A DNA stretch of 28,901 nt, from the NCBI GenBank assembly GCA_043825875.1, contig JBDRRF010000040.1, forward strand, positions 1-28,901. The letters are read 5' to 3'. The notes under the pieces were generated by a model. That model was not told where the DNA came from and did no database searches. It was given only the letters and a program-made list of their open reading frames with translations. Below are positions 5,254 through 20,073 of this stretch, in pieces (position 1 is the stretch's first letter; every line of letters begins with the position of its first letter). The DNA comes from Pseudomonadota bacterium (GTDB lineage: Bacteria > Desulfobacterota > Desulfobacteria > Desulfobacterales > RPRI01). Both the position numbers and the translations under genes were made by a program.

Positions 5254-5322
5254 GTTTACGGTTTACGGTTTACAGTTGACAGTTGAGTAAAACCTGACAA
5301 CTGTAAACCGTAAACTGTAAAC
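5254..5322. repeat. Family C inverted heptamer array (29-bp arm hairpin)
   Basis: Arm 5254-5282 versus the reverse complement of 5294-5322 matches 27/29; 11-nt loop. Confidence 0.9.
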
Positions 5323-5379
5323 GCTTAGTTGTAAACTGATACCCGGTTAGTGTAACTGACAGGGCGGAGCTATATATAT

Positions 5380-5590
5380 CGGTTGACAGTTGGCGGTTGT
5401 CAGTTGGCGGTTGACAGTTGGCGGTTGACAGTTGGCGGTTGTCAGTTGACAGTTGACAGTTAACCGTAAACCGCTTTTATCCGTCAACTGTTAACTGTGA
5501 ACTGCAAACCGCTTTTACCCGTGAACCGTAAACCGCTTTTACCCGTCAACTGTTAACTGTAAACTGCAAACCGCTTTTACCCGTAACCCG
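5380..5590. repeat. Family C array: 12 CRGTTRN heptamers, then inverted CYGYNAA heptamers punctuated by CCGCTTTTAY 10-mers
   Basis: Units read directly at 5380-5463. Orientation switches at the GTTAAC palindrome; reverse units run 5464-5590. Confidence 0.95.
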
Positions 5591-5608: not shown

Positions 5609-7300
5609 ATGACTGTTAAAAAAACGATCAGAAAACCCAAAAAAAATGTTAGTGATACGGAAGTTTCAGTTTCTCCGGGTGGTGAAGTCTTCTCTATCCC
5701 CGGCACTGCGGATTACAAAAAAGAATTCACCCGTTTAAAAGCTCTTGTTGCCGGCCAACGAAAAATGAACCGGGAAATAGTAGTTGTAATGGGCGTGGGC
5801 TTCGTAGGAGCAGTAATGGCCGGAGTAATTGCCGATTCTATTGATAAAACAAGCGGCAAACCCGGCAAATTTGTGATCGGTATGCAACGCCCTTCTCCTC
5901 GCTCTTTCTGGAAGATACCATACATGAACCGGGGGATAGCTCCTGTTGAGGCTGAAGATCCCGAAGTTGCTCCTCTTATTGCACGTTGTGTAAAAGAGAA
6001 AAAAAATCTTATTGCAACTTTCACATACGACGCTCTTAGTCTGGCCGATGTGGTTGTAGTAGATGTTCAGTGCGACTATTTCAAGGATACTTTTGGAAAC
6101 TGTCGTGAAGGCCATGCCGAAATAGCCGCGCTAGAAGATAGCCTTAAGGTTATAGGCGAAAGAATCAATCCGGATTGTCTGGTTCTTATTGAAACCACGG
6201 TTCCTCCGGGAACAACTGAATATGTAGCCTACCCTTTAATGAAAAAGGCTTTCGAAAACCGGGGTATCCAGTCCGATCCCCTGCTTTCTCATTCTTATGA
6301 AAGAGTAATGCCAGGGCGTGACTATGTTGCCTCCATCCGTGATTTCTGGAGGGTATGCAGCGGAATAAATGATGCCTCACGCAAACGAGTCGAAAAATTC
6401 CTTACCGAAATATTAAACGTAGATAAGTTTCCTCTTACCGTTTTAGACCGTCCCATAGAAAGTGAAACCTGTAAAATCGTAGAAAACTCTTATCGCGCAA
6501 CAATTCTGGCGTTTCTGAATGAATGGAGTCTTTTTGCCGAAAGAAACGGTGTAGATCTTATAAAGGTTATCAAGGCCATCAAGATTCGCCCGACTCATAG
6601 CAATATTATATTTCCGGGTCCCGGCATAGGCGGCTATTGCCTTCCAAAAGACGGCGGATTGGGAGTATGGTCTTATCATACTCTTATGGGCTTCGACGAT
6701 GATATTTTTAAAATCACACCGCTTGCAATAGATATTAATGATACCCGTTCTCTTCATGCCGCAGAGCTTGTCCGCGATGCTTTAAGAAATATGAGCAAAA
6801 TAGTGGCAGCTTCTAAAGTTGCTGTTTTAGGAGCTTCCTACAGAGAAGATGTCGGAGATACCCGCTATAGCGGTTCAGAAATACTGGTTCGCAAACTCAG
6901 TGAGATGGGCGCGGAAATATGTGTTCACGATCCTTATGTAAAACACTGGTGGGAGCTTGAAAAGCAGGATACCTACCCTGCCCCCGGTCATTCATGGGCA
7001 CGTTTTTTCAGAAATCAGGACAAACTAACCGAAACACACATAGAGCCAAACCTTAAAAAAGTACTTAAGGGAGTAGACGCACTGGTTTTGGCAGTTCGCC
7101 ATCAGGCTTATCTCAAACTTGATCCGGACGAAGTTGTCAAAATGGTCGGCCGACCAACAGCTGTCATCGATTGCTTCGGAATCCTGGAAGACTCGCAAAT
7201 ACAACGTTATTTTGAACTGGGTTGCGAAGTAAAAGGATTGGGCAGGGGGCATATGAAAAGAATAAAAGATATGGTAAAACGGTTACCGGTTGACGGTTGA
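5609..7300 (+). CDS. Nucleotide-sugar dehydrogenase (UDP-glucose/GDP-mannose dehydrogenase family, long form)
   Basis: GVGFVG Rossmann motif, ETTVPPGTT, KIVENSYR, GPGIGGYCLPKD catalytic Cys, GASYREDVGDTRYS. Confidence 0.88.
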   Translation: MTVKKTIRKPKKNVSDTEVSVSPGGEVFSIPGTADYKKEFTRLKALVAGQRKMNREIVVVMGVGFVGAVMAGVIADSIDKTSGKPGKFVIGMQRPSPRSFWKIPYMNRGIAPVEAEDPEVAPLIARCVKEKKNLIATFTYDALSLADVVVVDVQCDYFKDTFGNCREGHAEIAALEDSLKVIGERINPDCLVLIETTVPPGTTEYVAYPLMKKAFENRGIQSDPLLSHSYERVMPGRDYVASIRDFWRVCSGINDASRKRVEKFLTEILNVDKFPLTVLDRPIESETCKIVENSYRATILAFLNEWSLFAERNGVDLIKVIKAIKIRPTHSNIIFPGPGIGGYCLPKDGGLGVWSYHTLMGFDDDIFKITPLAIDINDTRSLHAAELVRDALRNMSKIVAASKVAVLGASYREDVGDTRYSGSEILVRKLSEMGAEICVHDPYVKHWWELEKQDTYPAPGHSWARFFRNQDKLTETHIEPNLKKVLKGVDALVLAVRHQAYLKLDPDEVVKMVGRPTAVIDCFGILEDSQIQRYFELGCEVKGLGRGHMKRIKDMVKRLPVDG

Positions 7301-7349
7301 CAGTTATCGGTTGGCGGTTGACAGTTGACGGTTATCAGTTTCCAGTTGA
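7280..7349. repeat. Family C left-arm array, 10 CRGTTNN heptamers, overlapping the dehydrogenase stop
   Basis: CGGTTAC CGGTTGA CGGTTGA CAGTTAT CGGTTGG CGGTTGA CAGTTGA CGGTTAT CAGTTTC CAGTTGA. Confidence 0.92.
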
Positions 7350-7423: not shown

Positions 7424-7495
7424 CAGTCTGTTAAGAATTTTTCCTCTCAAAAAATTCTTCAAAAAACTCTGAGACTCTGTGCTCTCTGTGAGAGA
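7424..7495 (+). repeat. Family A repeat (AT hairpin plus CTCTGTG x3 core)
   Basis: AAGAATTTTT-cctctca-AAAAATTCTT hairpin at 7433-7459; core 7467-7495; near-identical to 19528-19599. Confidence 0.92.
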
Positions 7496-7544: not shown

Positions 7545-8840
7545 ATGAATATAACCGTTGCAGGAACCGGATATGTTGGCCTTGTTACAGGAACCGGGTT
7601 TGCAAATTTAGGCAACAATGTAATATGTTTTGATATAGATCAAAAGAAAGTAGACACTCTTTCAAAAGGAGAGCTTACTATATATGAGCCGGGCCTTGAA
7701 GAGATTTTTAAAAGAAATATTAAAACCGGAAGGCTGATCTTTACATCAGATCCCCAAAAAGCTGTAAAAGAATCCAAAATCATTTTAATCTGTGTGAATA
7801 CTCCTTGTAATCATATGCAGGAAGCCGATTTAACCTCGGTAGAAAATGTTGCAAAGCAGATAGGTAAGTTTATGAACGGCTACAAGGTAGTTGTAAATAA
7901 AAGCACGGTGCCTGTCGGAACTGCCGAATTTGTCAGAAATATTATAAAATCAAATCAGAAAAAAAAGATTGAGTTTGATGTGGTTTCAAATCCGGAATTT
8001 TTAAGAGAAGGGGCTGCTGTAAAAGATTTCGAGAATCCGGACAGAATCATAATCGGAACAGACAGCAAAAAAGCTGAAAAAATAATGGTTTCACTTTACC
8101 GGTCTGTCGCAAGAACCGGAAGGCCTATAATGCTTACTGATATAAAGAGTGCCGAAATAATAAAATACGCCGGTAATGCAATGCTTGCAACAAGAATAAG
8201 TTTTATGAATCAGCTGTCTTATTTATGCGATAAAACAGGCGCAAATATCAGGGATGTTTCCAAAGGCCTTGGACTTGACGGCAGAATCGGTCCGCGTTTT
8301 CTGCATGCAGGCATAGGCTATGGTGGAAGCTGCTTTCCCAAGGATGTAAAAGCTCTTATATCTACTTTAAAAAAACATAAATGCGATTCTGATCTTTTTG
8401 AAGCAGTTGACAGAATTAATGAAAAGCAAAAAAGCGTACCGGTAGAAAAACTCAAACCTATTATGAAATTCAAAGGTGCTACAATTGCTGTCTGGGGACT
8501 TTCTTTCAAGCCAAAAACAGACGATATAAGAGACGCTCCATCACTTAAAATAATCGGGGAGCTTCAAAAACTGGGGGCAACAATTCATGCCTATGATCCC
8601 ATTGCAATGGAAAACGCCGGAAAAGTTTTGAAAAAAGTCATACTTTTTGAAAATCCTTATGATGCAGCTAAAAGCTGTGATGCTCTTATTGTTGCAACCG
8701 AATGGGATGAATTCAGAAATATTGATATGAAAACAGTAAAATCGCTTATGAAAAAACCCATCATTGTTGACGGAAGGAATATATACGACCGGGATGAACT
8801 GAAAAAACTTGGTTTCACATATTTAGGAATCGGAAGATAA
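7545..8840 (+). CDS. ugd: UDP-glucose 6-dehydrogenase
   Basis: GTGYVGL, KSTVPVGT, SNPEFLREG, GYGGSCFPKD, GLSFKPKTDDIRDAP, DGRNIY. Confidence 0.93.
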   Translation: MNITVAGTGYVGLVTGTGFANLGNNVICFDIDQKKVDTLSKGELTIYEPGLEEIFKRNIKTGRLIFTSDPQKAVKESKIILICVNTPCNHMQEADLTSVENVAKQIGKFMNGYKVVVNKSTVPVGTAEFVRNIIKSNQKKKIEFDVVSNPEFLREGAAVKDFENPDRIIIGTDSKKAEKIMVSLYRSVARTGRPIMLTDIKSAEIIKYAGNAMLATRISFMNQLSYLCDKTGANIRDVSKGLGLDGRIGPRFLHAGIGYGGSCFPKDVKALISTLKKHKCDSDLFEAVDRINEKQKSVPVEKLKPIMKFKGATIAVWGLSFKPKTDDIRDAPSLKIIGELQKLGATIHAYDPIAMENAGKVLKKVILFENPYDAAKSCDALIVATEWDEFRNIDMKTVKSLMKKPIIVDGRNIYDRDELKKLGFTYLGIGR

Positions 8841-8860
8841 AAGTCAATGCAAGAGGTTAA

Positions 8861-8986
8861 TTTGCAGTGAGAATATTTAGCCGCCGACCGACGCAGACAT
8901 AAACAGACAAAATATCTGCGAACGTCCGCGCTTGTCTGCGGCTAACATGAAGCACATCTGTAAAACCTGCTTTTGTCTGCGGCAAA
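8861..8986. repeat. Family B composite element (left arm TTAGCCGCCGACC..., right-arm 34-mer at 8912-8945)
   Basis: About 125 bp, colinear with 11167-11295. The left arm is the inverse of the 34-mer ATATCTGCGAACGTCCGCGCTTGTCTGCGGCTAA. Confidence 0.9.
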
Positions 8987-8996
8987 TCAAACTATC

Positions 8997-9386
8997 ATGG
9001 ATATAAACGACATAACATATAAGATCAATGGCGCTATATATGAAGTCAATCGTGTTCTCGGTCCGGGCTTCCTGGAAAAGGTATATGAGAACGCCCTGTT
9101 GATAGAACTTCGCGAAACAGGCTTGAAAACGGAAAATCAGGTGCCGGTAGAAGTCAAATACAAAGGTCATAGTGTCGGAAACTACCTTGCAGATTTGTTG
9201 GTTGAGGAAAAAGTAATTATAGAACTTAAAACAGTCGAAAGTATAACCAAATTACATGAAGCGCAATTATTGAACTATCTTAAAGCAACAAATATTAAAG
9301 TTGGGCTGTTAGTAAATTTCCAGAATGTGAAGGCTCAAATAAAAAGAATGGTGTTAGGTTTGCAGGAAGATCATGACAGTTTTTAG
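8997..9386 (+). CDS. GxxExxY family protein (PD-(D/E)XK nuclease-like fold)
   Basis: GPGFLEKVYE (GxxExxY), ADLLVEEKVIIELK, QLLNYLK...GLLVNF. Start moved to ATG 8997 because the paralog at 19611 also begins MDIN and the ORF-track start lies within the repeat. Confidence 0.92.
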   Translation: MDINDITYKINGAIYEVNRVLGPGFLEKVYENALLIELRETGLKTENQVPVEVKYKGHSVGNYLADLLVEEKVIIELKTVESITKLHEAQLLNYLKATNIKVGLLVNFQNVKAQIKRMVLGLQEDHDSF

Positions 9387-9410
9387 TCTGTGTCAGGTCG
9401 ACAGACTAAA

Positions 9411-9485
9411 ATATCTGCGAATGTCCGCGCTTGTCTGCGGCTAAAGATATAATATCTGCGAACGTCTGCGCTTGTCTGCGGCTAA
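9411..9485 (+). repeat. Two tandem family B 34-mers
   Basis: 9411-9444 and 9452-9485 each differ by one base from 8912-8945. They are preceded by a perfect 11-bp stem, 9381-9391/9401-9411. Confidence 0.95.
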
Positions 9486-9495
9486 TATGAAATTT

Positions 9496-9554
9496 AATTT
9501 TTCCTCTCAAAAAATTCTTAAAAATAACTCTGTGACTCTGTGTTCTCTGTGAGA
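9496..9554 (+). repeat. Family A repeat
   Basis: AATTTTTCCTCTCAAAAAATTCTT...CTCTGTGACTCTGTGTTCTCTGTGAGA (core 9528-9554). Confidence 0.93.
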
Positions 9555-9593
9555 AACAAAAAAAGTATTTAATAATTTTAAAATAATACCATA

Positions 9594-9896
9594 ATGCAAA
9601 AAGAACTTACTTATACCAATATAATAAATAGTTTAAAAGCTGAAAAGGACTTTCTTTGCAAAGAATATGGTGTTATTGAAATCGGCTTATTCGGTTCATA
9701 TGCCTTTGGAACTCCAAATAAAGACAGCGACATTGATCTTTTAATTGAATTCAAAGAACCAAAGTTTGAACATCTTGCCGGACTTATAATTTATCTAGAA
9801 AATAAATTTAATAAAAAGATTGAAATAATAAGAAAAAGTAAAAATATCAAAAGCCGGTTTATTCAAGGTATAGAAAATAAAGTTATTTATGTCTGA
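9594..9896 (+). CDS. Minimal nucleotidyltransferase (MNT) antitoxin, MntA-like
   Basis: GLFGSYAFG...DSDIDLLIE (GS plus DxD); overlaps the downstream HEPN gene. Confidence 0.88.
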   Translation: MQKELTYTNIINSLKAEKDFLCKEYGVIEIGLFGSYAFGTPNKDSDIDLLIEFKEPKFEHLAGLIIYLENKFNKKIEIIRKSKNIKSRFIQGIENKVIYV

Positions 9897-10254
9897 TAAT
9901 TTTACAACTGATAATTTCCAAAGTATTTTAGAAGCGATACAATTGATTGAAGAAAGGTTTGTTGAAGTTAGTCAAGCTGGAGATTTTGTTTTGTCCCCTC
10001 ACGGTGTTATTATACTCGATTCAATAGCCATGAGACTGCAAGTAATTGGAGAATTAGTTAAAAAAATCGAAAAATCAGATCGGTCTCTTCTTGATAAATA
10101 TTCGAATATTAAATGGGATTTGATTATCAGATTAAGAGATATTATATCTCACCACTATGCTGTTATTGACCATGAAATAATTTATGATATATGCAAAAAT
10201 CATATTCCTCCACTAAAAGCATCAGTTTTAAAAATTCTTGAAAAAACTCTGTAA
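9889..10254 (+). CDS. HEPN (DUF86/HepT-like) RNase toxin
   Basis: LQVIGELVK, W..I.RLRDIISHHY (RX4HXY); paired with MNT. Confidence 0.88.
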   Translation: MSDNFTTDNFQSILEAIQLIEERFVEVSQAGDFVLSPHGVIILDSIAMRLQVIGELVKKIEKSDRSLLDKYSNIKWDLIIRLRDIISHHYAVIDHEIIYDICKNHIPPLKASVLKILEKTL

Positions 10255-10275
10255 CTCTGTACTCTCTGTAAGAGA
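10230..10275 (+). repeat. Family A repeat overlapping the HEPN 3' end
   Basis: AAAAATTCTTGAAAAAACTCTGTAACTCTGTACTCTCTGTAAGAGA encodes KILEKTL-stop. Confidence 0.88.
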
Positions 10276-10324
10276 TTTAAAAGATACAAGGCACAAGTTT
10301 ATAAACTTTACGGTTATCGATTTA

Positions 10325-10394
10325 CTGTTTATTGTTAACTGTCAACCGTTAACCGTAAACCGTTTTTCTGCGACTCTGTGTTCTCTGTGAGAGA
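10325..10394 (+). repeat. Family C right-arm heptamers fused to a family A core
   Basis: CTGTTTA TTGTTAA CTGTCAA CCGTTAA CCGTAAA, then TTCTGCGACTCTGTGTTCTCTGTGAGAGA (10366-10394). Confidence 0.88.
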
Positions 10395-10424
10395 CAAGTG
10401 AAAATTTGATAATTTTTTGCCATT

Positions 10425-10447
10425 TGTATATATTCATTGTATATACA
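10425..10447. promoter_or_regulatory. Putative vapBC operator palindrome
   Basis: TGTATATA-N7-TATATACA perfect inverted repeat just upstream of the vapB SD (GGAG). Confidence 0.65.
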
Positions 10448-10465
10448 TAATAGATCGGAGTAACT

Positions 10466-10696
10466 ACGAACACAGCAAAAATTTTTAAAAGCGGGAATTC
10501 TCAGGCAGTAAGATTACCAAAATAATTTCAATTTGCTACCTCAGAGGTTCAAATTTTTCGAAGAGGTGATGAGGTAATTCTTAAAAAAAGCCCAAGAAAT
10601 TTAACCCGTGTATTTGAACTGCTCACCGGATTATCAGTTGATTTTATGGAAAATGGCAGACAGCAACCACCAGTTCAGGAACGGGAACCCTTTTAA
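10466..10696 (+). pseudogene. vapB: AbrB/MazE-type VapB antitoxin pseudogene
   Basis: Manual translation (ACG)NTAKIFKSGNSQAVRLPK*FQF...RRGDEVIL...QEREPF*. The start codon is ACG and there is an in-frame TAA at 10523-10525. Confidence 0.88.
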
Positions 10697-11090
10697 TGTT
10701 CATGCTCGACACCAATATTTGCATTTACATTATTAAACATAAGCCAACGAGCGTACAAAAGCGTTTTAAGATGCTACAGCCCGGGCAGCTTGCAATGTCT
10801 GCCATAACATTTGCCGAATTAATGAATGGTGCAAAAAAAGCCAACAAATTGAGGCAAACACAGCAAAACTAATTGAATTGGCCGAACTGATTAAAATTTA
10901 TCCTTTTGATAAAAATGCCGCAGTTTTTTATGGCGATGTACGTTCAGCCCTTGAGAAAAAGGGAAAAGTAATTGGAAGCAATGATTTGTTGATCGCTGCT
11001 CATGCTTTAAGCCTTAATTTGATATTAGTGACAAATAATGAAAAAGAATTCAAACGAGTTGATGGACTAAAAATAGAATACTGGGTATAA
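10696..11090 (+). pseudogene. vapC: PIN-domain VapC toxin, frameshifted
   Basis: MFMLDTNICIYIIK...SAITFAELMNGAKK, then a frameshift at an A7 run (10833-10839; A8 restores frame) into the frame with IGSNDLLIAAHA...LVTNNEKEFKRV. TAATG coupling with vapB. Confidence 0.9.
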
Positions 11091-11109
11091 GATCAACAAT
11101 TCTGTACAC

Positions 11110-11161
11110 TTCACTCAAAATTTCTTGAAAAAACTTCACAACTCTGAGGTCTCTGTGAGAG
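11110..11161 (+). repeat. Family A repeat (degenerate)
   Basis: CTCAAAATTTCTTGAAAAAAC...ACTCTGAGGTCTCTGTGAGAG. Confidence 0.8.
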
Positions 11162-11166
11162 TTTGT

Positions 11167-11394
11167 TTTGCAGTAAAAATATTCAGCCGCCGACCAACGC
11201 AAACAAACACAAACTTTATAATATCTGCGAACATCCGCGTTTGTCTGCGGCTAACATGAAGCGCGTCTGTTAAATTTGCTTATGTCTGCGGCAAAGATGA
11301 AATTAAATTTTTCTCCTCTGCCCCGCTAAATTCCAAAGAACTATTAAACTGGGGGCAAAAACTCTTAAACAAACTCTGAACTCTCTGTCAGAGA
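11167..11394. repeat. Family B composite element joined directly to a family A repeat (no gene between), with a 36-nt insert at 11320-11355
   Basis: 11167-11295 matches 8861-8986. The following ATGAAATTAAATTTTTCTCCTCT matches 9487-9507. Confidence 0.85.
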
Positions 11395-11408
11395 TAAAAA
11401 GAGGATAT

Positions 11409-11642
11409 ATGGATATTATGTTTGATCGAATAACCATTGATCCGCAAGTCATGAACGGGCAACCATGTCTGCGTAATTTGCGACTGACTGTTAGAAGAGT
11501 TGTGGAAGCTGTCGCGTTATATCCTGACTGGAAGGATCTACATGCTGAATACCCTGAACTTGAAAAAGAAGATATTTATCAGGCTCTGGCTTTTGCAGCA
11601 AGAAATCTTGACAGCCAAATTATTCCACTAGAGGCAGCTTGA
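11409..11642 (+). CDS. DUF433 family protein (putative antitoxin)
   Basis: RITIDPQVMNGQPCLRNLRLTV...EYPELEKEDIYQALAFAA. Confidence 0.88.
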   Translation: MDIMFDRITIDPQVMNGQPCLRNLRLTVRRVVEAVALYPDWKDLHAEYPELEKEDIYQALAFAARNLDSQIIPLEAA

Positions 11643-12022
11643 ACCGTATTTTACTTGATCAGGGTCTACCCCGAACAGCAGCAAATATTCTGCGTGATAA
11701 AGGATGGGATATATTACACACGGGGGACATAGGACTTAGCAGAGCTTCCGATCAGGAAATATTGGCTTATGCCCGTCTTGAAAAAAGGATGATCATTACT
11801 TTAGATGCCGATTTTCATGCGATTTTAGCAGTGGAAAATGCAAAATCTCCTTCAGTAATCAGACTACGGTATGAGGGGCTAAAAGGTCAGGCATTAGCAA
11901 ACTTAATTGAGACAATATGGCCAAGAATTCAGATGCAATTGGAGTCAGGTGCAATGGTAACAGTAACAAGTAAATCAATCAGAATCCGAAAGATTCCAAT
12001 AATAGATACAACTACCCTATAA
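11639..12022 (+). CDS. DUF5615 PIN-like protein (putative toxin)
   Basis: ILLDQGLP, ASDQEIL, IITLDADF; TTG start overlapping the DUF433 stop. Confidence 0.85.
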   Translation: MNRILLDQGLPRTAANILRDKGWDILHTGDIGLSRASDQEILAYARLEKRMIITLDADFHAILAVENAKSPSVIRLRYEGLKGQALANLIETIWPRIQMQLESGAMVTVTSKSIRIRKIPIIDTTTL

Positions 12023-12077
12023 AAACCTGACTGTCATGCTTTACTATGAACTATTAACTATCTTTCTCTTTAGACTT

Positions 12078-12188
12078 CCGTTAACTGTAAACCGTAAACC
12101 GTCAACCGCTTTTATCCGTCAACTGTAAACCGTAAACCGCTTTTAACCGTAAACCGCTTTTAACCGTAAACTGTAAACCGCTTCTACT
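12078..12188 (+). repeat. Family C right-arm array upstream of the four-helix-bundle gene
   Basis: CYGTNAA heptamers plus CCGCTTYTAN 10-mers running up to ATG 12189. Confidence 0.93.
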
Positions 12189-12539
12189 ATGTCCTCTTCT
12201 TTCGAAGATTTAGATGTCTGGAAAAAATCATGCGAATTATCAGTACGTCTTTATGAGTTGCTGAGAAACTGCCGTGATTACGGAATAAAAGATCAAATGC
12301 TCCGTTCATCCATATCTATCCCATCTAATATTGCTGAAGGAGCCGAAAGAAAAAGCACCCCGGATTTCAAGAGATTTATAAACATAGCTCTTGGTTCAGC
12401 TGCCGAGCTAAGAACACAGGTCTATATTTCAAAACAAGTAAACATTTTATCTGATAAAGTTGCTGAAGGACTGATAGAAGAATTAAAATCCATATCAAAA
12501 ATGCTCCAGCGGCTGCACAGTTCATTAAAAGAAAGATAA
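12189..12539 (+). CDS. Four helix bundle protein (23S rRNA-IVP-like family)
   Basis: FEDLDVWKKS, DQMLRSSISIPSNIAEGAER, FINIALGSAAELRTQ. Confidence 0.92.
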   Translation: MSSSFEDLDVWKKSCELSVRLYELLRNCRDYGIKDQMLRSSISIPSNIAEGAERKSTPDFKRFINIALGSAAELRTQVYISKQVNILSDKVAEGLIEELKSISKMLQRLHSSLKER

Positions 12540-12548
12540 CTACCTTTA

Positions 12549-12709
12549 CCGGAAACCATCAACTGTTAACTGCAAACCGCTTCTATCCGTCAACTGTGCA
12601 CCGTAAACTGTAAACCGCTTCTATCCGTCAACCGTCAACTGAAAACTGTCAACTGCTTTTAACCGTCAACCGCTTCTAACTGTCAACTGTAAACTGCAAA
12701 CCGCTTTTA
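12549..12709 (+). repeat. Family C right-arm array downstream of the four-helix-bundle gene
   Basis: Same heptamer/10-mer grammar, running up to ATG 12710. Confidence 0.93.
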
Positions 12710-14872
12710 ATGCATAAATTCTACTACATAATAAAATCATTTTTACCCCGCCGGCTACAGATTTATATCCGGCGCAAGGTTTTAATGAAAAAACACCATA
12801 AATATAAAGATGTCTGGCCTATAGACGAAAAGGCTGCAAAGCTTCCGGAAGGCTTTACAGGATGGCCGGATGGGAAAAAATTTGCTCTTGTCTTGACACA
12901 TGATGTAGAAAATGCAAAAGGACACGACAATTGTAAAAAACTGGCGGAAGTGGATGAAAGTTTTGGCTTCAGATCATCTTTTAATTTTGTTGCAAAAGAT
13001 TATCCTGTTTCACCAAAATTACGCCAATATCTTAATGAGCTGGGATTTGAGGTAGCTATACACGGCCTGCATCATGATAAAAATCCGTTCCGGTCAAAAG
13101 AAGTGTTTCAGGAGCAGGCTGTAGAAATTAACAACCATTTAAAGGAATGGAATGCTGTCGGTTTCCGGTGTCCAAGCATGTATCATGATCTTGAAATGTT
13201 GCATGAGTTAAATATTGAATACGATGCTTCCACATTTGATACTGATCCTTTTGAGCCTCAGCCTGATGGCTTGGGTACAATTTTTCCTTTCTGGGTGTCG
13301 GGTAATTCCAATCAACATTGGAGACCTTTGAAGAATGCTCAATTTTGCTCAGGTTCAAGGAAGGTGGAAATTCCAACCACAGGAATACATGAAGTTGAAT
13401 GTGAACCTGATGAAGAAATCGGGGAAAAGGGAGCGTTATGCAACGGTTTCAGGGGATATATTGAGCTTCCCTACACCCTGCCCCAGGATTTTTTATTGTA
13501 TGTACTTATGAAAGAAAAAAATATAGAAATATGGAAAAAGAAACTTGACTGGATTGCAGATAAAGGAGGTATGGCTCTTTTTATAACACATCCGAACTAC
13601 ATAAGTTTCAATGGAAATTTGACTTATGAAGAATTTCCCGTTAAGTATTATGCAGAGTTTTTGGAGTACATTAAATCAAAATATGAAGGACAATACTGGC
13701 ACGCATTACCAAGGGAGGTTTCACGCTTTTGGCGCACAAACATCGAACCCCAACCAGTTTCAAAGCATCTTGAACCTTGCGCCTTGCGCCATGAACCTTA
13801 TACTTCAAACCTTAAAATTTCTTTAATCGATCCGCTCAATGATCCTCGGTGGGATTCGTTTGTTACAAATCATCCTTTTGGATATATTTGTCATCTATCA
13901 GGTTGGAAACAAGTCCTTGAAGAAAGCTTTCCCCATATGAAGGGGCATTATTTAGCTCTTGTTGATTCCTCTGATAACAGTATACGGGCAGCTCTTCCTC
14001 TTTTTGAGGTAAGAAGCCTCATTACAGGGAACAGGCTGGTCAGTATTCCTTTTGCGACTATTTGTGATCCGCTTGTATCTTCGGATGAAGATATGACAAA
14101 ACTTCTTGATGCGGCAATAGATCTTTCAAAAAAACTTGGAACTTCTAAAATTGAAATAAGAACTAGTGCTTCAGAGCATCTTAATCAGGAGCATAGAACA
14201 GATTCAGTAATACATAATAAGTGCCATCAACTTTCACTTGAAGCCAGCCCTGAAGAACTGATTAAAACATTTAGCAAACAAGTAAAACGCAAGTTAAAAA
14301 AAACCTTAAATTATGATTTAACACCACAAATTGCTGAGCAGGATAATGAACTTAAAGAGTTTTATCATCTTTATGTTAAAACCAGAAAACGTCTGGGACT
14401 CCCTCCACAACCATATCTTTTTTTTAAATTACTGTGGGAAAAATTTTCACCGTCTAAAAATATTACCCTTCTTATGATCAGACATAAAGAAAAGTTAGCT
14501 GCCGGTTTAATAATGTATAAGTTCAAGGATCGCTGCTCATGGGACTATCTGGCATCGGATGTTAATTTTCAGCATCTGCATACAAATTATTTTGGCTTAT
14601 GGGAGGCAATAAAACAATCCTGTTTAGAAGGCTATAAGATATTCGATTTTGGGCGAACAGGAATAAGCAATGAAGGATTGATGGGATTTAAAAGACTTTG
14701 GGGAACAACGATTATAGATCTGCCTCAATATTATTATCCAAAAGAATTATGCTCGAATTTAAAACCTGCTGATTCATCAATGTCATATAAACTTATAAGG
14801 AAGGTTAATAAAATTGCACCTGATTCTGCTTTCCGCCTTATGGGGAAATTTTTATACAAGCATATTGGTTAA
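12710..14872 (+). CDS. Fusion: polysaccharide deacetylase-like (NodB/CE4) domain plus FemAB-like GNAT domain
   Basis: LTHDVE, IHGLHH, GFRCP and ELPYTLPQD in the N-half; SIPFATIC, RKRLGLPPQPY and FDFGRT...GLMGFK in the C-half. Confidence 0.82.
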   Translation: MHKFYYIIKSFLPRRLQIYIRRKVLMKKHHKYKDVWPIDEKAAKLPEGFTGWPDGKKFALVLTHDVENAKGHDNCKKLAEVDESFGFRSSFNFVAKDYPVSPKLRQYLNELGFEVAIHGLHHDKNPFRSKEVFQEQAVEINNHLKEWNAVGFRCPSMYHDLEMLHELNIEYDASTFDTDPFEPQPDGLGTIFPFWVSGNSNQHWRPLKNAQFCSGSRKVEIPTTGIHEVECEPDEEIGEKGALCNGFRGYIELPYTLPQDFLLYVLMKEKNIEIWKKKLDWIADKGGMALFITHPNYISFNGNLTYEEFPVKYYAEFLEYIKSKYEGQYWHALPREVSRFWRTNIEPQPVSKHLEPCALRHEPYTSNLKISLIDPLNDPRWDSFVTNHPFGYICHLSGWKQVLEESFPHMKGHYLALVDSSDNSIRAALPLFEVRSLITGNRLVSIPFATICDPLVSSDEDMTKLLDAAIDLSKKLGTSKIEIRTSASEHLNQEHRTDSVIHNKCHQLSLEASPEELIKTFSKQVKRKLKKTLNYDLTPQIAEQDNELKEFYHLYVKTRKRLGLPPQPYLFFKLLWEKFSPSKNITLLMIRHKEKLAAGLIMYKFKDRCSWDYLASDVNFQHLHTNYFGLWEAIKQSCLEGYKIFDFGRTGISNEGLMGFKRLWGTTIIDLPQYYYPKELCSNLKPADSSMSYKLIRKVNKIAPDSAFRLMGKFLYKHIG
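13321..13450. mobile_element. MITE-like element inserted in frame in the deacetylase domain
   Basis: Imperfect TIRs 13321-13340/13431-13450 (15/20); colinear with element 1-140. Confidence 0.75.
13768..13802 (+). repeat. Heptamer tandem repeat (CCTTGCG type) in the inter-domain linker
   Basis: TCTTGAA CCTTGCG CCTTGCG CCATGAA CCTTATA. Confidence 0.7.
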
Positions 14873-14890
14873 TCCGGAAAGTTTGGAAAT

Positions 14891-16141
14891 ATGAATACAA
14901 CCTACTCACATAAACAAAAGAACACTAGCTCACCAGCTTACAAACCCAAACGAATATGCATGCTGGCATATTCGTTCTATGATTCGGATGGTCGTATCAG
15001 GCGTTATGCAGAAACTTTGTCCAAGCGTGGCGATTATGTTGAAGCTATTTGTTTAAGAAAAGAAGGGCAGCCATATCATGAGGTTGTAGAAGGGGTTAAT
15101 GTATACAGAATACAGAAACGGATTATAGATGAAAAGAGTGAATCCTCATATCTGTTTAAACTAATAAAATTTTTAATTTTATCTATGGTAGTAATATCCA
15201 AAAGACATTTAAAAAATCCTTATGATTTGATACATGTTCATTCCGTTCCTGATTTTGAGGTGTTTGCTGCAATATTTCCAAAATTACGAGGCGCAAAAAT
15301 AATTTTAGATATCCATGATATTGTACCTGAATTTTATGCCAGCAAATTTAACAAAATCGAAACAAGTTATATATTTAAATTATTAGCAGCAGTTGAAAGG
15401 GCTTCAATTACATTTTCCGACCATGTAATTATTTCAAACCACATCTGGGGTAAAACACTTATTTCCCGATCGGTTTCGGAGCAAAAGTGTAGTGTAATAA
15501 TGAATTATCCTGATCCATCTATTTTTTATAAAAGGGTTAAAACCAGAAAAGATGATCGTTTGATCATTATTTACCCCGGTTCTCTTAACTGGCATCAGGG
15601 ATTAGATATTGCAATAAAAGCATTTGCCAAAATTAAAGATAAAATTCCGGAAGCTGATTTTTATATTTATGGACGTGGTCCGGAAAAAAATAATTTATTG
15701 GGTCTTGTTATGGAACTTGGACTACAGGAAAGGGTTTTTATTAAAGACACTCTTCCATTAGATCAAATTGTTGAGATTATGGCAAACGCAGATCTTGGGG
15801 TTGTTCCAAAAAGAAACAGTTTTTTCGGAGGAGAAGCATTTAGTACCAAAATTTGGGAATTTATGACTCTTGGTATCCCTGTAATTGTGTCAGATACTAA
15901 AATAGATAGATTCTATTTCAATGACTCAGTTGTAAAATTTTTCAAACCCGAAAATGAAGATGATTTATCAGAATCTATGTTGACACTTTTAACCAACAAG
16001 CAGTTAAGCGAATCCTTATCCCAAAAAGCAGAAGATTTTGTTTCAGACTTTAGTTGGGAAAAGAAAAAAAATGAATACCTAAACCTTGTGGATTCACTAA
16101 CTGGTAATAATTGTGTTCAAGAAAAGGTTAAAGTAGAATGA
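14891..16141 (+). CDS. GT4 family glycosyltransferase
   Basis: DGRIRRYAETL, ILDIHDIVPE, GLDIAIKAF, STKIWEFMTLGIPVIVS. Confidence 0.88.
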   Translation: MNTTYSHKQKNTSSPAYKPKRICMLAYSFYDSDGRIRRYAETLSKRGDYVEAICLRKEGQPYHEVVEGVNVYRIQKRIIDEKSESSYLFKLIKFLILSMVVISKRHLKNPYDLIHVHSVPDFEVFAAIFPKLRGAKIILDIHDIVPEFYASKFNKIETSYIFKLLAAVERASITFSDHVIISNHIWGKTLISRSVSEQKCSVIMNYPDPSIFYKRVKTRKDDRLIIIYPGSLNWHQGLDIAIKAFAKIKDKIPEADFYIYGRGPEKNNLLGLVMELGLQERVFIKDTLPLDQIVEIMANADLGVVPKRNSFFGGEAFSTKIWEFMTLGIPVIVSDTKIDRFYFNDSVVKFFKPENEDDLSESMLTLLTNKQLSESLSQKAEDFVSDFSWEKKKNEYLNLVDSLTGNNCVQEKVKVE

Positions 16142-17007
16142 TCACATATGTTTTGATAACTCCAGCTCGAAATGAAGAAGCAAATATTGAAAGGGTTATC
16201 ACATCAGTAATTAAACAAACTGTTTTGCCGGTGAAATGGGTTATTGTAAGTGATGGCTCAACCGACCGAACTGATGAGATCGTAGAAAAATATATTAAAG
16301 AAAATCCATGGATAGAATTATTGAGAATGCCGGAACATGCTGATCGTCAGTTTGCAGCTAAAGTTCATTGCTTTAATGCGGGATATAATAAAGTTAAAAC
16401 ATTGAATTATGATATAATCGCAAATCTTGACGCAGATATTTCGTTTGAAAAAGATTATTTTGAATTCCTTATCTCAAAATTTAATGAGAATACAAAATTA
16501 GGTGTTGTCGGAACACCCTTTGTTGAAAACGGTCTGCATTACGATTACAGATTTACAAATATTGAACATGTTTCCGGTGCATGTCAATTATTCAGACGTG
16601 AATGTTTTGAAGAAATTGGGGGGTATATTCCTATAAAGAGTGGTGGCATTGATTGGGTAGCTGTAACTACCGCAAGGATGAAAGGCTGGAAAACCAGAAC
16701 ATTTACCGAAAAAGTTTGCTATCACCATCGAAAGATGGGAACCGGAAACACTTCTGCTTTGTTGACTTGGTTCAGGCAGGGTCAAAAGGATTATTTTTGG
16801 GGCAACCATCCTTTTTGGGAAATTTTCAGAGCTTCCTATCAAATGATCAAAAAACCCTTTATTATTGGTGGATCATTTCTATTCTTCGGATTTGCATGGG
16901 CAAGCCTAAAAAGAATAAAAAGACCCATATCAGAAGAACTTATGAAATTTATTCGCTGTGAACAGATGAACAGGCTAAAAAAAGCGCTCAAACTGAAGAG
17001 TTTCTAG
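16138..17007 (+). CDS. GT2 family glycosyltransferase
   Basis: ITPARNEE, VSDGSTD, NLDAD, FRRECFEEIGG. Confidence 0.9.
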   Translation: MITYVLITPARNEEANIERVITSVIKQTVLPVKWVIVSDGSTDRTDEIVEKYIKENPWIELLRMPEHADRQFAAKVHCFNAGYNKVKTLNYDIIANLDADISFEKDYFEFLISKFNENTKLGVVGTPFVENGLHYDYRFTNIEHVSGACQLFRRECFEEIGGYIPIKSGGIDWVAVTTARMKGWKTRTFTEKVCYHHRKMGTGNTSALLTWFRQGQKDYFWGNHPFWEIFRASYQMIKKPFIIGGSFLFFGFAWASLKRIKRPISEELMKFIRCEQMNRLKKALKLKSF

Positions 17008-17064
17008 CCGCAAACAAACGCAGAAAGAGATTTGATTAACGTTCAAATAAAACTTACCTGCGAT
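17005..17064. repeat. Family B left arm with about 45-nt extension; direct repeat of 19453-19517
   Basis: AGCCGCARACAAACGCAGAAAGASATTTG...GTTCAA...TTACCTGCGAT is shared by both copies. Confidence 0.85.
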
Positions 17065-17208
17065 GGTACAAACAAACTTACTACTGTTGAAAATATGAAA
17101 GACGACATAAACCGGATATTGGAAGGCAAAAACAAGCCTGGCGCAATTCCTGAACTCTGGGACGGCCGAACAAGCGAAAGAATCCTGAAAATATTGATGG
17201 ACTATTAA
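17065..17208 (+). pseudogene. wecB: C-terminal remnant of non-hydrolysing UDP-GlcNAc 2-epimerase
   Basis: Manual translation GTNKLTTVENMKDDINRILEGKNKPGAIPELWDGRTSERILKILMDY*. GTN.L and PELWDG...ERI are typical of the WecB C-terminus. Confidence 0.8.
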
Positions 17209-17212
17209 ATAA

Positions 17213-17277
17213 TCTCTCGCAGAGTCCGCAGAGATCACAAAGATTTTTCAGAATTTTTCAAAAGAAAATTCTGAAAA
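17213..17277 (-). repeat. Family A repeat in inverted orientation with AT hairpin
   Basis: TCTCTCGCAGAGTCCGCAGAGATCACAAAG (17213-17242), then a perfect 13-bp stem 17245-17257/17265-17277. Confidence 0.82.
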
Positions 17278-17357
17278 TATGTTATTCTGCAAATGCAAAA
17301 AAAACCATTTATATATCGGAGTTTTTCATAGGCATGTAAGTTTGTAAGGATTTTTCA

Positions 17358-17723
17358 ATGATTAAATTTGTAGCAGATGCGAATATTGAAAGAAAAATCG
17401 TAGATTGTCTGATAAAACTTGGATTTGATGTAAAATGGATTCCTGATTATAATTGTGAAATGAGTGATACAGATCTCTTAACAATGGCAACTAATGAAAA
17501 TCGCATTCTAATAACAAATGACAAAGACTTCGGTGAGATAGTTTTTTTACGGAAACAAAATTCCGCAGGTATAATACTTATAAGGGTTAAAGGACATAAA
17601 GCTGAAGAAAAAGTAAAAATGTTAGAAAAGCTTATGCTGAATTATAAAGAAAAGATACCTAATCATTTTTCGATTATAACCAAAACAAAGTTCAGATTTA
17701 TTCCGTTGGAGGATATACTATGA
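17358..17723 (+). CDS. DUF5615 PIN-like protein
   Basis: KFVADANIE, SDTDLL, LITNDKDFGE, GIILIR. Confidence 0.87.
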   Translation: MIKFVADANIERKIVDCLIKLGFDVKWIPDYNCEMSDTDLLTMATNENRILITNDKDFGEIVFLRKQNSAGIILIRVKGHKAEEKVKMLEKLMLNYKEKIPNHFSIITKTKFRFIPLEDIL

Positions 17724-17953
17724 AAGAAGAAGCCTTGCTTAAAAGAATTACCATAAATCCAAATATAATGTTAGGTAAACCGATAATTAAAGGCACCAGA
17801 TTGACAGTGGAGTTTATTATAGAAAAATTGGCTTACGGTGCTACCTATAATGATTTAAAAGAAGATTATCCCTTCCTTGATGAAGATGATATCCGTTCAG
17901 CACTACTATATGCAGCAAAATGTTTATCCCACGAAGAAGTCTATGCAGCTTAA
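17720..17953 (+). CDS. DUF433 family protein
   Basis: RITINPNIMLGKPIIKGTRLTV...DYPFLDEDDIRSALLYAA; ATGA overlap. Confidence 0.9.
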   Translation: MKEEALLKRITINPNIMLGKPIIKGTRLTVEFIIEKLAYGATYNDLKEDYPFLDEDDIRSALLYAAKCLSHEEVYAA

Positions 17954-17982
17954 TGGGAATTGTCTTTAACCGGCAATCGTTT

Positions 17983-18049
17983 TTCTGCGACTCTGTGTAC
18001 TCTGTGAGAAACAAAAAAACATCTCGCAGAGCACACGGAGATCACAAAG
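17983..18049. repeat. Back-to-back family A cores (forward 17983-18009, inverted 18022-18049)
   Basis: TTCTGCGACTCTGTGTACTCTGTGAGA-aacaaaaaaaca-TCTCGCAGAGCACACGGAGATCACAAAG, followed by the palindrome TTATAGAAC-G-GTTCTATAA at 18052-18070. Confidence 0.9.
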
Positions 18050-18071
18050 ATTTATAGAACGGTTCTATAAC

Positions 18072-18179
18072 ATGACAGTTTACAAAAAAGAACTGATAAC
18101 ATACTGGATAAATAGTTCCGATAATGATTTCAAGGCAATGATACATTTTTTTGAAAAAGGTGACTATGCATGGTCATAA
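18072..18179 (+). pseudogene. Truncated HEPN-domain gene (N-terminal 35 codons)
   Basis: MTVYKKELITYWINSSDNDFKAMIHFFEKGDYAWS* resembles the first helices of MNT-associated HEPN proteins and runs straight into an MNT gene. Confidence 0.65.
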
Positions 18180-18480
18180 AGGAATTGCTCCTGAAATAGC
18201 AATCAAATACATAGATTTTCTAAAAACAAGAAATCATAGTATTAAAAAAACTTATCTTTTTGGTTCTTATGCCAAAGAAACGTTTACTGATGACAGCGAT
18301 ATAGATTTAGCTATTGTATTTGACAACCTTTCCGATACATTCGATATGCAAGTTCTTTTAATGAAGCTTAGAAGAAAGTTCGATAATAAAATCGAACCAC
18401 ATGCTTTCAGAGATTCCGATTTTAATACTTCTAACCCTGTGGCTAATGAGATATTTAAATATGGGATCGAAATTATTTAA
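18166..18480 (+). CDS. Minimal nucleotidyltransferase (MNT) domain protein; 5' end uncertain
   Basis: YLFGSYAK...DSDIDLAIV, IEPH. The TTG at 18151 lies inside the HEPN remnant, so the in-frame ATG 18166 is used. Confidence 0.8.
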   Translation: MHGHKGIAPEIAIKYIDFLKTRNHSIKKTYLFGSYAKETFTDDSDIDLAIVFDNLSDTFDMQVLLMKLRRKFDNKIEPHAFRDSDFNTSNPVANEIFKYGIEII

Positions 18481-18502
18481 CTGCTATTTACTATACCTCA
18501 TT

Positions 18503-18624
18503 TCAAAAATTCTTGAAAAAACTCTGTGACTCTGTGTACTCTGGGAGAAACAAAATATCTCACAGAGTACACAAAGATTCTTAAATAACAACTCTGTTAT
18601 TATGTATACTCTATTAAAGATAAA
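18503..18624. repeat. Family A forward core (18522-18548), inverted partial core (18558-18576) and a decayed forward copy
   Basis: CAAAAATTCTTGAAAAAACTCTGTGACTCTGTGTACTCTGGGAGA...TCTCACAGAGTACACAAAG. Confidence 0.87.
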
Positions 18625-18733
18625 GATAGCTCATGAGTTCATAAGCTGTTAAGCTCATAAATAACGATCAGATAGCGATCTTAGCTGACCGCTGACAACT
18701 TTCCTTTTTTTATATATAATTTGGAGAATAATT

Positions 18734-18982
18734 ATGCAGAATTTACTGAATCGTATTACCTTTGATAAAGAGGTGCTTTGCGGAAAACCTATTATCCGTG
18801 GCATGAGGATATCAGTTGAAATGATATTGGAACTATTGGCCAGAGGGGCTTCCGAAGAAGAAATTCTACAAGACTATCCACTTCTTGAACCGGATGATCT
18901 TCGTGCTGTATTGCTCTATGCCCATAGCATGGTAGCCAGTGAAAATATCTTTGATCGATCTACAGATAGAAAAGCTTCATGA
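18734..18982 (+). CDS. DUF433 family protein
   Basis: RITFDKEVLCGKPIIRGMRISV...DYPLLEPDDLRAVLLYA; SD GGAG. Confidence 0.9.
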   Translation: MQNLLNRITFDKEVLCGKPIIRGMRISVEMILELLARGASEEEILQDYPLLEPDDLRAVLLYAHSMVASENIFDRSTDRKAS

Positions 18983-19338
18983 ATTTCTTGCTGGATGTCA
19001 ATGCAAGTGGAGTCATAGCTCATTTGTTGGTTAGCCTTGGACATGATGTAGCCGAGGTAAACAATAAAGATCCAAGAATGAGTGACAATGATATTTTAAA
19101 CTGGGCTGTAAGAGAACGTAGAATTATTATTACTACCGACAATGATTTCGAAGAAATGATCTGGCGGCAAGGTATGCCACATTATGGTATCTTACGTCTG
19201 GAAAATTTACCAAGGCATGACAGATTAATTCTTTTGCGTGATGCACTTGATTTCCATAGTCATGATTTAGAATCCGGATCTATTGTTATTGCACTTAGCT
19301 CAAAATTTCGCGTTCGCAAACCACAGCCCAGGGATTAA
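18979..19338 (+). CDS. DUF5615 PIN-like protein
   Basis: FLLDVN, SDNDIL, IITTDNDF, GILRL; ATGA overlap. Confidence 0.87.
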   Translation: MNFLLDVNASGVIAHLLVSLGHDVAEVNNKDPRMSDNDILNWAVRERRIIITTDNDFEEMIWRQGMPHYGILRLENLPRHDRLILLRDALDFHSHDLESGSIVIALSSKFRVRKPQPRD

Positions 19339-19342
19339 CCTT

Positions 19343-19599
19343 CCTGCGAAGCAGTATGACAGTTTTCAAGAATTTTCCTCTTGAAAAATTCTTGAAAAAT
19401 AACTCTGCGACTCCGTGCTCTCTGTGAGAGATTAATTTGCAATAAATATATTCAGCCGCAGACAAACGCAGAAAGACATTTGGTGAATGTTCAATTATAA
19501 GACAATTTACCTGCGATAGCAGCATGTCAGTCTATTAAGAATTTTTCCTCTCAAAAAATTCTTAAAAAAACTCTGTGACTCTGCGTTCTCTGTGAGAGA
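19343..19599 (+). repeat. Two full-length family A repeats (about 168-bp period) with a family B left arm between
   Basis: CCTGCGA..GCAGYATGWCAGT-hairpin-core at 19343-19431 and 19510-19599. Confidence 0.92.
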
Positions 19600-19610
19600 C
19601 AAAAATCATA

Positions 19611-19994
19611 ATGGACATAAATAAAATATCTTCAGATATAATTAAAGCAGCAATAAACGTACACAAAGAATTTGGCCCCGGGCTATTAGAATCTGTCTAT
19701 CAGTCCTGTATGATTATCGAACTATCTGAAATGGGCATAAATGTAAAAGCTGAGGTCTCCATACCAATAACATACAGGGGAAAAGATGTAACAGACCAGG
19801 GCTTCAGGATAGATCTTCTTGTCGAAGATTCCCTCATTGTTGAACTTAAATCTGTTGAGCAGATCAAAGACATACATAAAAAACAGTTATTAACATATTT
19901 GAAATTAGCCAATAAACCTTTAGGACTCCTGATAAACTTTAACGAAATATTGTTAAAAGACGGGTTAACCCGTATTATCAATGCCCCACATTGA
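19611..19994 (+). CDS. GxxExxY family protein (PD-(D/E)XK nuclease-like fold)
   Basis: GPGLLESVY, RIDLLVEDSLIVELKSV, QLLTYLK...GLLINF. Confidence 0.93.
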   Translation: MDINKISSDIIKAAINVHKEFGPGLLESVYQSCMIIELSEMGINVKAEVSIPITYRGKDVTDQGFRIDLLVEDSLIVELKSVEQIKDIHKKQLLTYLKLANKPLGLLINFNEILLKDGLTRIINAPH

Positions 19995-19995
19995 T

Positions 19996-20067: not shown

Positions 20068-20073
20068 TAAAAT

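Follow-up and report, generated by a model that had tools for sequence, protein, structure and literature searches.

Whether a gene present in one of two similar stretches of DNA, and missing from the other, has moved as a cassette or has been lost is the question raised by a 28,901-nt contig (C40; JBDRRF010000040.1), the whole of which is called the window below. The assembly containing it (G000, the genome under study; 4.77 Mb, 39% GC, 118 contigs) was compared with those of congeners (G001-G016) and with loci of relatives (L labels). One stretch, copy 1, carries a gene for a GxxExxY protein between the UDP-glucose dehydrogenase gene (ugd) and a nucleotidyltransferase gene, and the other, copy 2, has no gene. 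The first-pass annotation took the two for the filled and empty versions of one site. We conclude that the pair is no record of a cassette exchanged at a fixed crossover point in TGTCTGCGGC; copies 1 and 2 are probably gene-bearing and gene-less members of one family of hairpin-arm elements, and the pair reflects decay and recombination. The features of the two copies are as follows.

8877..8902, + strand: left arm of copy 1, TTAGCCGCCGACCGACGCAGAC, the inverted form of two TCYGCG units, starting 37 nt past the ugd stop codon
8911..8945, + strand: right-arm unit B1, three TCYGCG hexamers in 10-bp phase, ending with GCGGCTAA
8946..8986, + strand: B', a degenerate 41-nt arm unit ending with TGTCTGCGGCAAA (blastn-short)
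8997..9386, + strand: GxxExxY gene of the PD-(D/E)XK nuclease fold, 129 aa (PF13366, TIGR04256)
9384..9409, + strand: tail hairpin AGTCTGT...ACAGACT, overlapping the stop codon (fold of 9380-9490)
9410..9485, + strand: right-arm units B2 (9410-9444) and B3 (9451-9485), 41-bp period (repeat comparison)
9486..9567, + strand: flank motif TATGAAATTTAATTTTTCCTCTC, then repeat A with three CTCTGTG units (repeat comparison)
11183..11208, + strand: left arm of copy 2 (sequence and fold, - strand z -3.2)
11220..11295, + strand: B (11220-11254) and B' (11255-11295) of copy 2, forming with the left arm a gene-less hairpin module
11296..11400, + strand: flank motif (11296-11318), GC-stemmed hairpin (11319-11356) and A-like repeat (11357-11400), upstream of a DUF433 gene

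The likeness of the two copies was confirmed. The stretches 8861-8986 and 11167-11295, described in the first-pass annotation as collinear homologs with a common end, are collinear in a MAFFT alignment and both end with TGTCTGCGGCAAA; 8852-8986 and 11158-11295 share 83% identity (E 2.8e-34), and the B-B' part (8911-8986 versus 11220-11295) shares 89% over 76 nt. The order read for copy 1 was also correct: TGTCTGCGGCAAA is followed by 10 nt, the gene, the 26-nt tail hairpin, the two B units, TATGAAATTTAATTTTTCCTCTC, and repeat A. Copy 2 passes directly from TGTCTGCGGCAAA into GATGAAATTAAATTTTTCTCCTC, which shows 86% identity to 9473-9508 over 36 nt. The statement that copy 2 goes straight into the flank motif and repeat A was accurate for the flank motif but not for the repeat, since a 38-nt GC-stemmed hairpin intervenes between the motif and a diverged A variant. 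A computed deletion product (8861-8983 joined to 9483-9508) matched 11167-11318 at 127 of 152 columns with three gaps, showing that a deletion between direct TGTCTGCGGC repeats would indeed yield a near-copy 2. The flanks right of the junction are homologous (21 of 26 nt match copy 2), whereas the gene side of copy 1 matches copy 2 at only 14 of 28 nt. In a blastn-short search of the genome and eight congener loci, the complete 41-nt B' was found only at 8946 and 11255 (85% identity between them). No other copy shares B', and this marks the two as specific paralogs of one another.

The first-pass annotation did not include the inverted left arm that pairs with B (8877-8902, 11183-11208). This arm is an inverted AGCCGCCGAC..CGCAGA, written AGCCGCCGACCGACGCAGA in both copies, and is located approximately 10 nt upstream of the first B. 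The outer ends are thereby inverted (TTAGCCGC...GCGGCTAA), and the terminal inverted repeats read TTAGCCGCCGAC ... GTCTGCGGCTAA here and TTAACCGCAGAC ... GTCTGCGGTTAA in relatives. The canonical element consists of the left arm (outer end TTAGCCGC), the nuclease gene, and the right arm B (two or three TCYGCG units, ending with GCGGCTAA), while copy 2 consists of the left arm, an 11-nt loop, B, and B'. As DNA, the left arm and B of copy 1 fold into a bulged hairpin that is more stable on the - strand (-20.6 kcal/mol, z -5.3 against shuffles) than on the + strand (-14.9 kcal/mol, z -3.2). Searching the 4.77 Mb with the B 35-mer (up to seven mismatches) gave eight copies, four on C40 and four on contig C56. 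The pattern TCYGCGN4TCYGCGN4TCYGCGGC (up to two mismatches) gave nine matches in G000, all on two contigs, and the reversed control gave none.

The encoded protein (hereafter Gxx1) belongs clearly to the GxxExxY family, with matches to PF13366 (8.6e-44, 149.1 bits against a cut-off of 22) and TIGR04256 (1.2e-44, 151.4 bits against a cut-off of 35). Its translation contains G24-F-L-E27-K-V-Y30 and D66...E76-L-K78; on the basis of the fold, we take D66...E76-x-K78 to be the PD-(D/E)XK triad. There are two intact GxxExxY genes in G000 (8997-9386 and 19611-19994), whose products share 43% identity. The first gene is 82% identical in nucleotides and 89% in amino acids to its ortholog in G002. Among candidates for near-identical copies in other contexts, the best relative is 78% identical in the metagenomes (L149) and 73% in the genome collection, distances at which a recent movement of the gene could not be shown.

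The arms accompany this gene lineage elsewhere. All six of the closest genome-collection relatives (66-73% amino acid identity) have CGCAGA units upstream and TCTGCG units downstream, beside unrelated housekeeping genes; the arms are clear (TTAACCGCAGAC..CGCAGAC and TCTGCG..TCTGCGGTTAA) in five, and L074 has one unit on each side. Their hosts are Desulfobacteraceae and other metagenome-assembled genomes, and arms also frame the lineage in other phyla. B is therefore the right arm of the element and not a host site. Of 64 relatives that were classified, taken as the 32 top matches in each of two collections, 56 are flanked by arm units on one side or both. The canonical arrangement of left arm, gene, and right arm was found in 27; seven have direct arms on both sides, three have a hairpin, gene, and arm like copy 1, 19 have other combinations, and eight have none. 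Across the genus, inspection by eye of 19 full-length GxxExxY genes found short tandem units on at least one side of 17, mostly as inverted arms, with a unit that varies among lineages: ACGAAGA, CACGAAA, CGCAGA/TCTGCG, CACAAAG/CTCTGTG, GATTACAGCG, or AACAGGAT.

Arm type and protein clade are co-inherited across hosts. On a tree of 53 proteins, from which eight rows without arms, six rows with stops in the match, and L149 were left out, the unit type (GCG or GTG) changes five times; with shuffled labels the number of changes averaged 17.9 and was never below 13, and none of 500 shuffles was as low as five. Both types occur in Desulfobacteraceae hosts, indicating that the arm follows the gene and not the host. 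Residue 109 of Gxx1 (after NF of LLVNF) is K/R in 18 of the 27 GCG rows (TCYGCG arms) and T/S/A in 21 of the 26 GTG rows (TCYGTG arms), and the association extends to two GCG rows that fall within the GTG clade.

Gene-less copies are frequent, and copy 2 is one of at least six hairpins in G000 that have both arms but no gene. Seven pairings of a left arm with B occur in G000: the hairpin upstream of the copy 1 gene, copy 2, four on C56 (including the copy at 9626, whose left arm is decayed), and C56:13586. On C56, left arm, B, and flank motif appear together four times between toxin-antitoxin cassettes with no GxxExxY gene, which makes the gene-less form the common one in G000. Copy 1 itself joins two units in tandem to a composite, first a gene-less hairpin and then the gene with two more B arms, and the left arm, B, and B' before the gene are read best as a first copy of the element with its gene gone. 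At L154, L155, L162, L164, L089, and L170, elements also stand in tandem, or two complete hairpins enclose a gene.

Relatives retain gene remnants of various lengths between the left arm and B. The order in G002, where the context of the ortholog differs from that of copy 1, is left arm, an internally deleted gene, B, a short B', the intact gene, B, a 3'-tail piece, B, and B'; the deleted gene keeps a few tens of nucleotides of the 5' start plus the 3' tail. At L149, the order is left arm, a 3' gene remnant, right arm, and gene (the 3' right arm was read from the translated tail, and the motif screen of the 64 relatives did not score it). G013 contains three copies of left arm, an approximately 110-nt remnant with the same tail, B, and B, and, among its toxin-antitoxin cassettes, B doublets and triplets that repeat every 51 bp; an intact gene of this GxxExxY lineage was not found in G013. 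The tail hairpin is kept in G002, and a homologous tail persists in the G013 remnants. The G000 hairpins keep no part of the gene. In addition, B-B' doublets also end the G002 element, so that B' is not junction-specific and does not point to deletion or to insertion. In another lineage, the one with AACAGGAT/ATCCTGT arms, G000:C76:216539-216700 is a GxxExxY gene with an in-frame internal deletion and approximately 30 codons left at each end; a copy on G008:C16 with the same Pfam match pattern may be an orthologous remnant.

These observations bear on the possibility that the gene and a B repeat form a discrete, integron-like cassette that site-specific recombination at the B repeats, crossing over within or next to TGTCTGCGGC, would excise and insert, copy 2 being the excised or unfilled state. 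Direct repeats do flank the gene, the virtual deletion gives copy 2, and B' is common only to the two copies. The direct-arm arrangement of seven of the 64 relatives, as well as the hairpin before the gene and arm after it in three more, can be read in the same way, and the second GxxExxY gene and the gene for a "23S rRNA intervening sequence protein" (IVP) in the window also lie between direct repeats. All cassettes share one orientation, and the greater stability of the hairpin on one strand can be likened to that of attC sites. The breakpoints, however, do not fit a fixed crossover. The first-pass annotation named breakpoints varying at random in other copies as a sign of plain slippage or RecA deletion; the remnant lengths do differ among G002, L149, G013, and G000, and the breakpoints of gene loss therefore vary. 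B duplications likewise differ in period and joint (41 bp with two different spacers in G000, 51 bp in G013). Such variability fits ordinary recombination between arms better. The nine PF00589 matches of G000 all lie outside the array contigs C40 and C56.

Comparison with the sister species G008, whose ugd is 94% identical to that of G000, leads in the same direction. Upstream of the same DUF433 gene, G008 has a gene-less left-arm/B module with a single B, so that the position of copy 2 is gene-less in both species, and the right flank of copy 2 (11296-11400) is approximately 90% identical, by eye, to its G008 counterpart. The left-arm/B part of copy 2 shows an identity of 0.76 to the positional counterpart, 0.90 to another G008 module, and 0.82 to copy 1. 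Since it is closer to the other G008 module than to its counterpart, modules at a given position have been swapped or substituted. Copy 2 does not mark a recent excision. The nucleotidyltransferase/HepT cassette that follows copy 1 is 94.5% identical to G008:C104 from 9496 onward, and upstream of the G008:C104 cassette lie a left arm and a 70-nt core of another sequence, but neither Gxx1 nor B. The indel that holds the gene thus spans from the left arm to AATTTTTCCTCTC and does not lie between TGTCTGCGGC copies. None of six congeners examined has the element or an empty hairpin after ugd, each having different content there, and the pair is accordingly not an allelic empty site. The contigs assembled from run X1 over 8300-11700 contain neither an 8983/9483 joint nor a circle, a neutral result since contigs are blind to rare forms. 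Joints found in X2 and X3 (8839 to 9506, 8908 to 11217, and 9502 to 11314) represent a G008-like strain with other cassettes, or repeat bridges. X2 and X3 are groundwater metagenomes from different studies; their strain is approximately 94-95% identical in ugd and has the cassette order of G008, unlike that of G000. We regard site-specific cassette exchange as unlikely, and on present evidence the claim of a fixed crossover point does not hold.

Whole hairpins vary between congeners. Matches to a related-arm pattern number 61 in G003, 43 in G014, and 17 in G015, on many contigs. Eighteen places were inspected, 15 in G003 and one each in G015, G001, and G008. A right arm was found at 17, and 15 of those 17 also have a left arm 60-190 nt upstream. 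The cores of these hairpins vary, and some retain the first approximately 28 nt of the gene. Orthology was tested at two loci, and both showed presence/absence: the G003:C352 element is absent from the same spacer in seven congeners (G015, G012, G001, G005, G016, G010, and G009), and the G003:C337 element is common to G014 and absent in G015, G002, and G009. These results suggest that the whole hairpin is the mobile unit. The target at the G003 sites is AT-rich, which makes a target-site duplication ambiguous. The hairpin common with G003:C337 (L250, G014:C168:3330-4030) carries a 62-bp GC-rich insert in its left arm between CGCA and GATGAACGCAGA, a nested insertion.

Within the reading of one hairpin-arm element family, we infer a partnership between nuclease and arms. 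The nuclease may bind the phased hexamers of its own arms and promote the spread of the arms, as RAYT transposases do with REP or REPIN hairpins. Ordinary recombination, slippage, or deletion favored by the hairpins, acting among the repeated arms, would turn gene-bearing copies into gene-less ones, and modules would be reshuffled at arm boundaries. The element is apparently selfish DNA of an undescribed kind that is losing its gene. A wider proposal, which we put forward tentatively, is that GxxExxY nucleases mobilize a new class of hairpin-arm elements, each lineage recognizing its own arms, with gene-less hairpins and arm-bracketed toxin-antitoxin cargo riding along and adjacent insertions building integrase-free, integron-like arrays within operons. 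If this proposal is true, copies 1 and 2 are autonomous and non-autonomous members side by side.

Several observations weigh against these interpretations. The restriction of B' to copies 1 and 2 and the good virtual deletion are predictions of the excision model. Linkage alone could make arm type track the gene tree, through co-transfer and not recognition, and the tracking by residue 109 is partial, with exceptions, a basal clade that has G throughout, and Q in Gxx1 itself. A PDB sequence search with the GxxExxY protein gave no match. G000 has only two intact GxxExxY genes, its B family is confined to two cassette arrays (the nine matches on two contigs), and the presence/absence data concern a related arm family and not the B family of G000.

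The arms might instead be host RNA or DNA signals (processing stems, stabilizers, terminators, or insulators) of a polysaccharide operon, the likeness of the copies being due to concerted evolution without mobility. The modules are indeed located in intergenic spacers of one long same-strand operon, also between biosynthetic genes, and the arms form hairpins; moreover, the 23S rRNA intervening sequences that carry the related IVP family are processed at a stem. Such a role is quite improbable, given that the arm sequence tracks the nuclease clade and not the host, that congeners differ in having or lacking a hairpin at orthologous spacers, and that the same arms flank the gene in unrelated operons of other organisms. 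A permissive Rfam scan of 8500-20500 matched no family (a single sub-threshold snoRNA match was obtained), and no rRNA match was found in the same region. That the pair is an assembly artefact or a chance likeness, with repeats collapsed or mis-joined in a metagenome-assembled contig, is hardly credible: the assembly comprises 118 contigs, and around copy 2 the Logan contigs are interrupted at the A and B repeats, but a Logan contig of run X1 (an independent assembly, probably of the source sample) spans 8300-9552 with no differences, G002 has a homologous B, B', gene, B structure at 82% nucleotide identity, and the reversed pattern has no matches.

The preferred reading, that of one hairpin-arm element family, can also be set against the rest of the window, a polysaccharide biosynthesis locus in which small same-strand genes interrupt the biosynthetic genes. 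The small genes comprise two GxxExxY/PDDEXK_3 genes, a nucleotidyltransferase/HepT pair, a decayed VapBC, three DUF433/DUF5615 pairs, a lone nucleotidyltransferase, and the IVP gene. Further features are as follows.

7545-8840: ugd, the biosynthetic gene preceding copy 1
12710-17007: GNAT/FemAB-like gene and glycosyltransferases
17003-17027: further left arm, overlapping a glycosyltransferase stop codon
17207..19442, + strand: three consecutive units of inverted A arm, cargo, and A arm (repeat comparison, domain matches)
19451..19475, + strand: further left arm AGCCGCAGACAAACGCAGA, the exact complement of two B units (95% complementary in the inverted-repeat comparison)
19611..19994, + strand: second GxxExxY gene, with direct A repeats on both sides (19554-19610, 20022-20078)
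from 20074: deacetylase and further glycosyltransferases

The cargos of the three consecutive units are DUF5615/DUF433 (17358-17953), nucleotidyltransferase (18151-18480), and DUF433/DUF5615 (18734-19338). Each unit has CNCAGAG as the inverted A arm and CTCTGTG as the direct A arm, and its right arm abuts the next left arm. Since these A arms match those of the second GxxExxY gene, the same arms also enclose toxin-antitoxin-like cargo. The IVP gene, which encodes a four-helix bundle (12189-12539; region 12037-12705), has direct arrays of CYGTMAA heptamers on both sides, and an orthologous IVP gene on G013:C206 has the same upstream array. A gene-less inverted pair of CYGTMAA heptamers was found at 10307-10359 (region 10300-10365). 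The spacers upstream of ugd (5255-5563, 7283-7345, and 7467-7490) likewise contain an A repeat and heptamer arms of either orientation, and arms in spacers between large biosynthetic genes indicate that gene-less arms populate the whole operon.

Some arms and repeats overlap the ends of genes. The TAG of the glycosyltransferase gene lies within the TTAGCC-like end of the left arm at 17003-17027, and the genes at L077 and L080, among several relatives, likewise end with TAG in TTAGCC. The TAA of the HepT gene is inside repeat A (10247-10270). The VapBC cassette (10460-11090) is decayed, with an antitoxin frame that has no start and an early stop and a PIN gene split into two open reading frames (10696-10872 and 10878-11090); a version that seems intact, as judged without translation, is located directly after ugd in G016.

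GxxExxY proteins and the companion four-helix "23S rRNA intervening sequence" proteins make up very common orphan families to which no role has been assigned. PDDEXK_3 is listed as of unknown function in PMC3424549, and a full-text literature search found no paper on the biology of GxxExxY, PDDEXK_3/PF13366, or TIGR04256/TIGR02436/PF05635. Four states are found within the genus, namely a copy with the gene, hairpins without it, intermediate-length remnants, and cargo bracketed by arms, and this series offers a concrete, testable picture of a nuclease-repeat partnership reshaping operons. What the locus adds is the remnant series within one genus, the composite layout, and the arm-bracketed toxin-antitoxin cargo. 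It may also point to a second route, besides integrons, to arrays of small defense-type cassettes.

Among known systems, a homing endonuclease gene would interrupt its recognition site, which would be intact only in the empty allele, whereas intact B arms stand on both sides of the copy 1 gene. Integrons, including integrase-less clusters, resemble the locus in their same-strand arrays of small, often toxin-antitoxin, genes between imperfect palindromic repeats, in cassette content that varies between close relatives, and in the topology of a gene-plus-repeat unit. They differ in that the repeats here co-vary with one cassette gene family and the breakpoints are variable. Neither intI nor another tyrosine recombinase gene was found on C40 (28.9 kb) or C56 (25.5 kb), although such a gene past the contig ends is possible. 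The inverse cores of attC sites are RYYYAAC ... GTTRRRY, with the crossover in GTT. No attC core was recognized here; the arms end with TTAGCCGC / GCGGCTAA or GCGGCAAA, and there is no conserved GTT at the junctions of the 27 B copies listed. The bulged hairpin favored on one strand (z -5.3 versus -3.2) is a resemblance only.

The 23S rRNA intervening sequences, such as the Coxiella intervening sequence with S23p, are similar in being small selfish open reading frames within inverted repeats inside a transcribed host unit, and the window also holds a PF05635/TIGR02436 gene framed by heptamer arrays. The host unit here is, however, a polysaccharide operon and not a 23S rRNA helix, and the open reading frame has a nuclease fold. 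Miniature inverted-repeat transposable elements and other internally deleted transposon derivatives share with the present element its terminal inverted repeats and gene-less copies that keep both ends, sometimes with bits of the gene, and outnumber the gene-bearing copies. No known transposase family is present here, and empty orthologous sites were seen only for the related hairpins in G003, where the AT-rich target leaves duplication ambiguous.

The repetitive extragenic palindromic sequences (REP and REPIN) with their RAYT transposases offer the remaining comparison. As described by Bertels & Rainey (2011, PMC3116915), short repeats form inverted hairpin doublets, a single-copy gene is flanked by cognate repeats, and gene-less doublets multiply. 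The gene here encodes a PF13366 PD-(D/E)XK GxxExxY protein and not a Y1 HUH transposase (PF01797); the 13 PF01797 matches in G000 are all on contigs other than C40 and C56. The arms are arrays of two or three phased hexamers instead of one palindrome, they can enclose cargo such as toxin-antitoxin pairs, and the family is clustered in two arrays in G000, unlike dispersed REP sequences, while the related arms of G003 (61 matches) are dispersed. The two systems are nevertheless alike in having inverted hairpin doublets, found here at 8877-8945 and 11183-11254, on C56, and in G008 and G013, and in combining a gene flanked by cognate repeats with gene-less non-autonomous doublets and tandem repeat clusters (PMC3116915).

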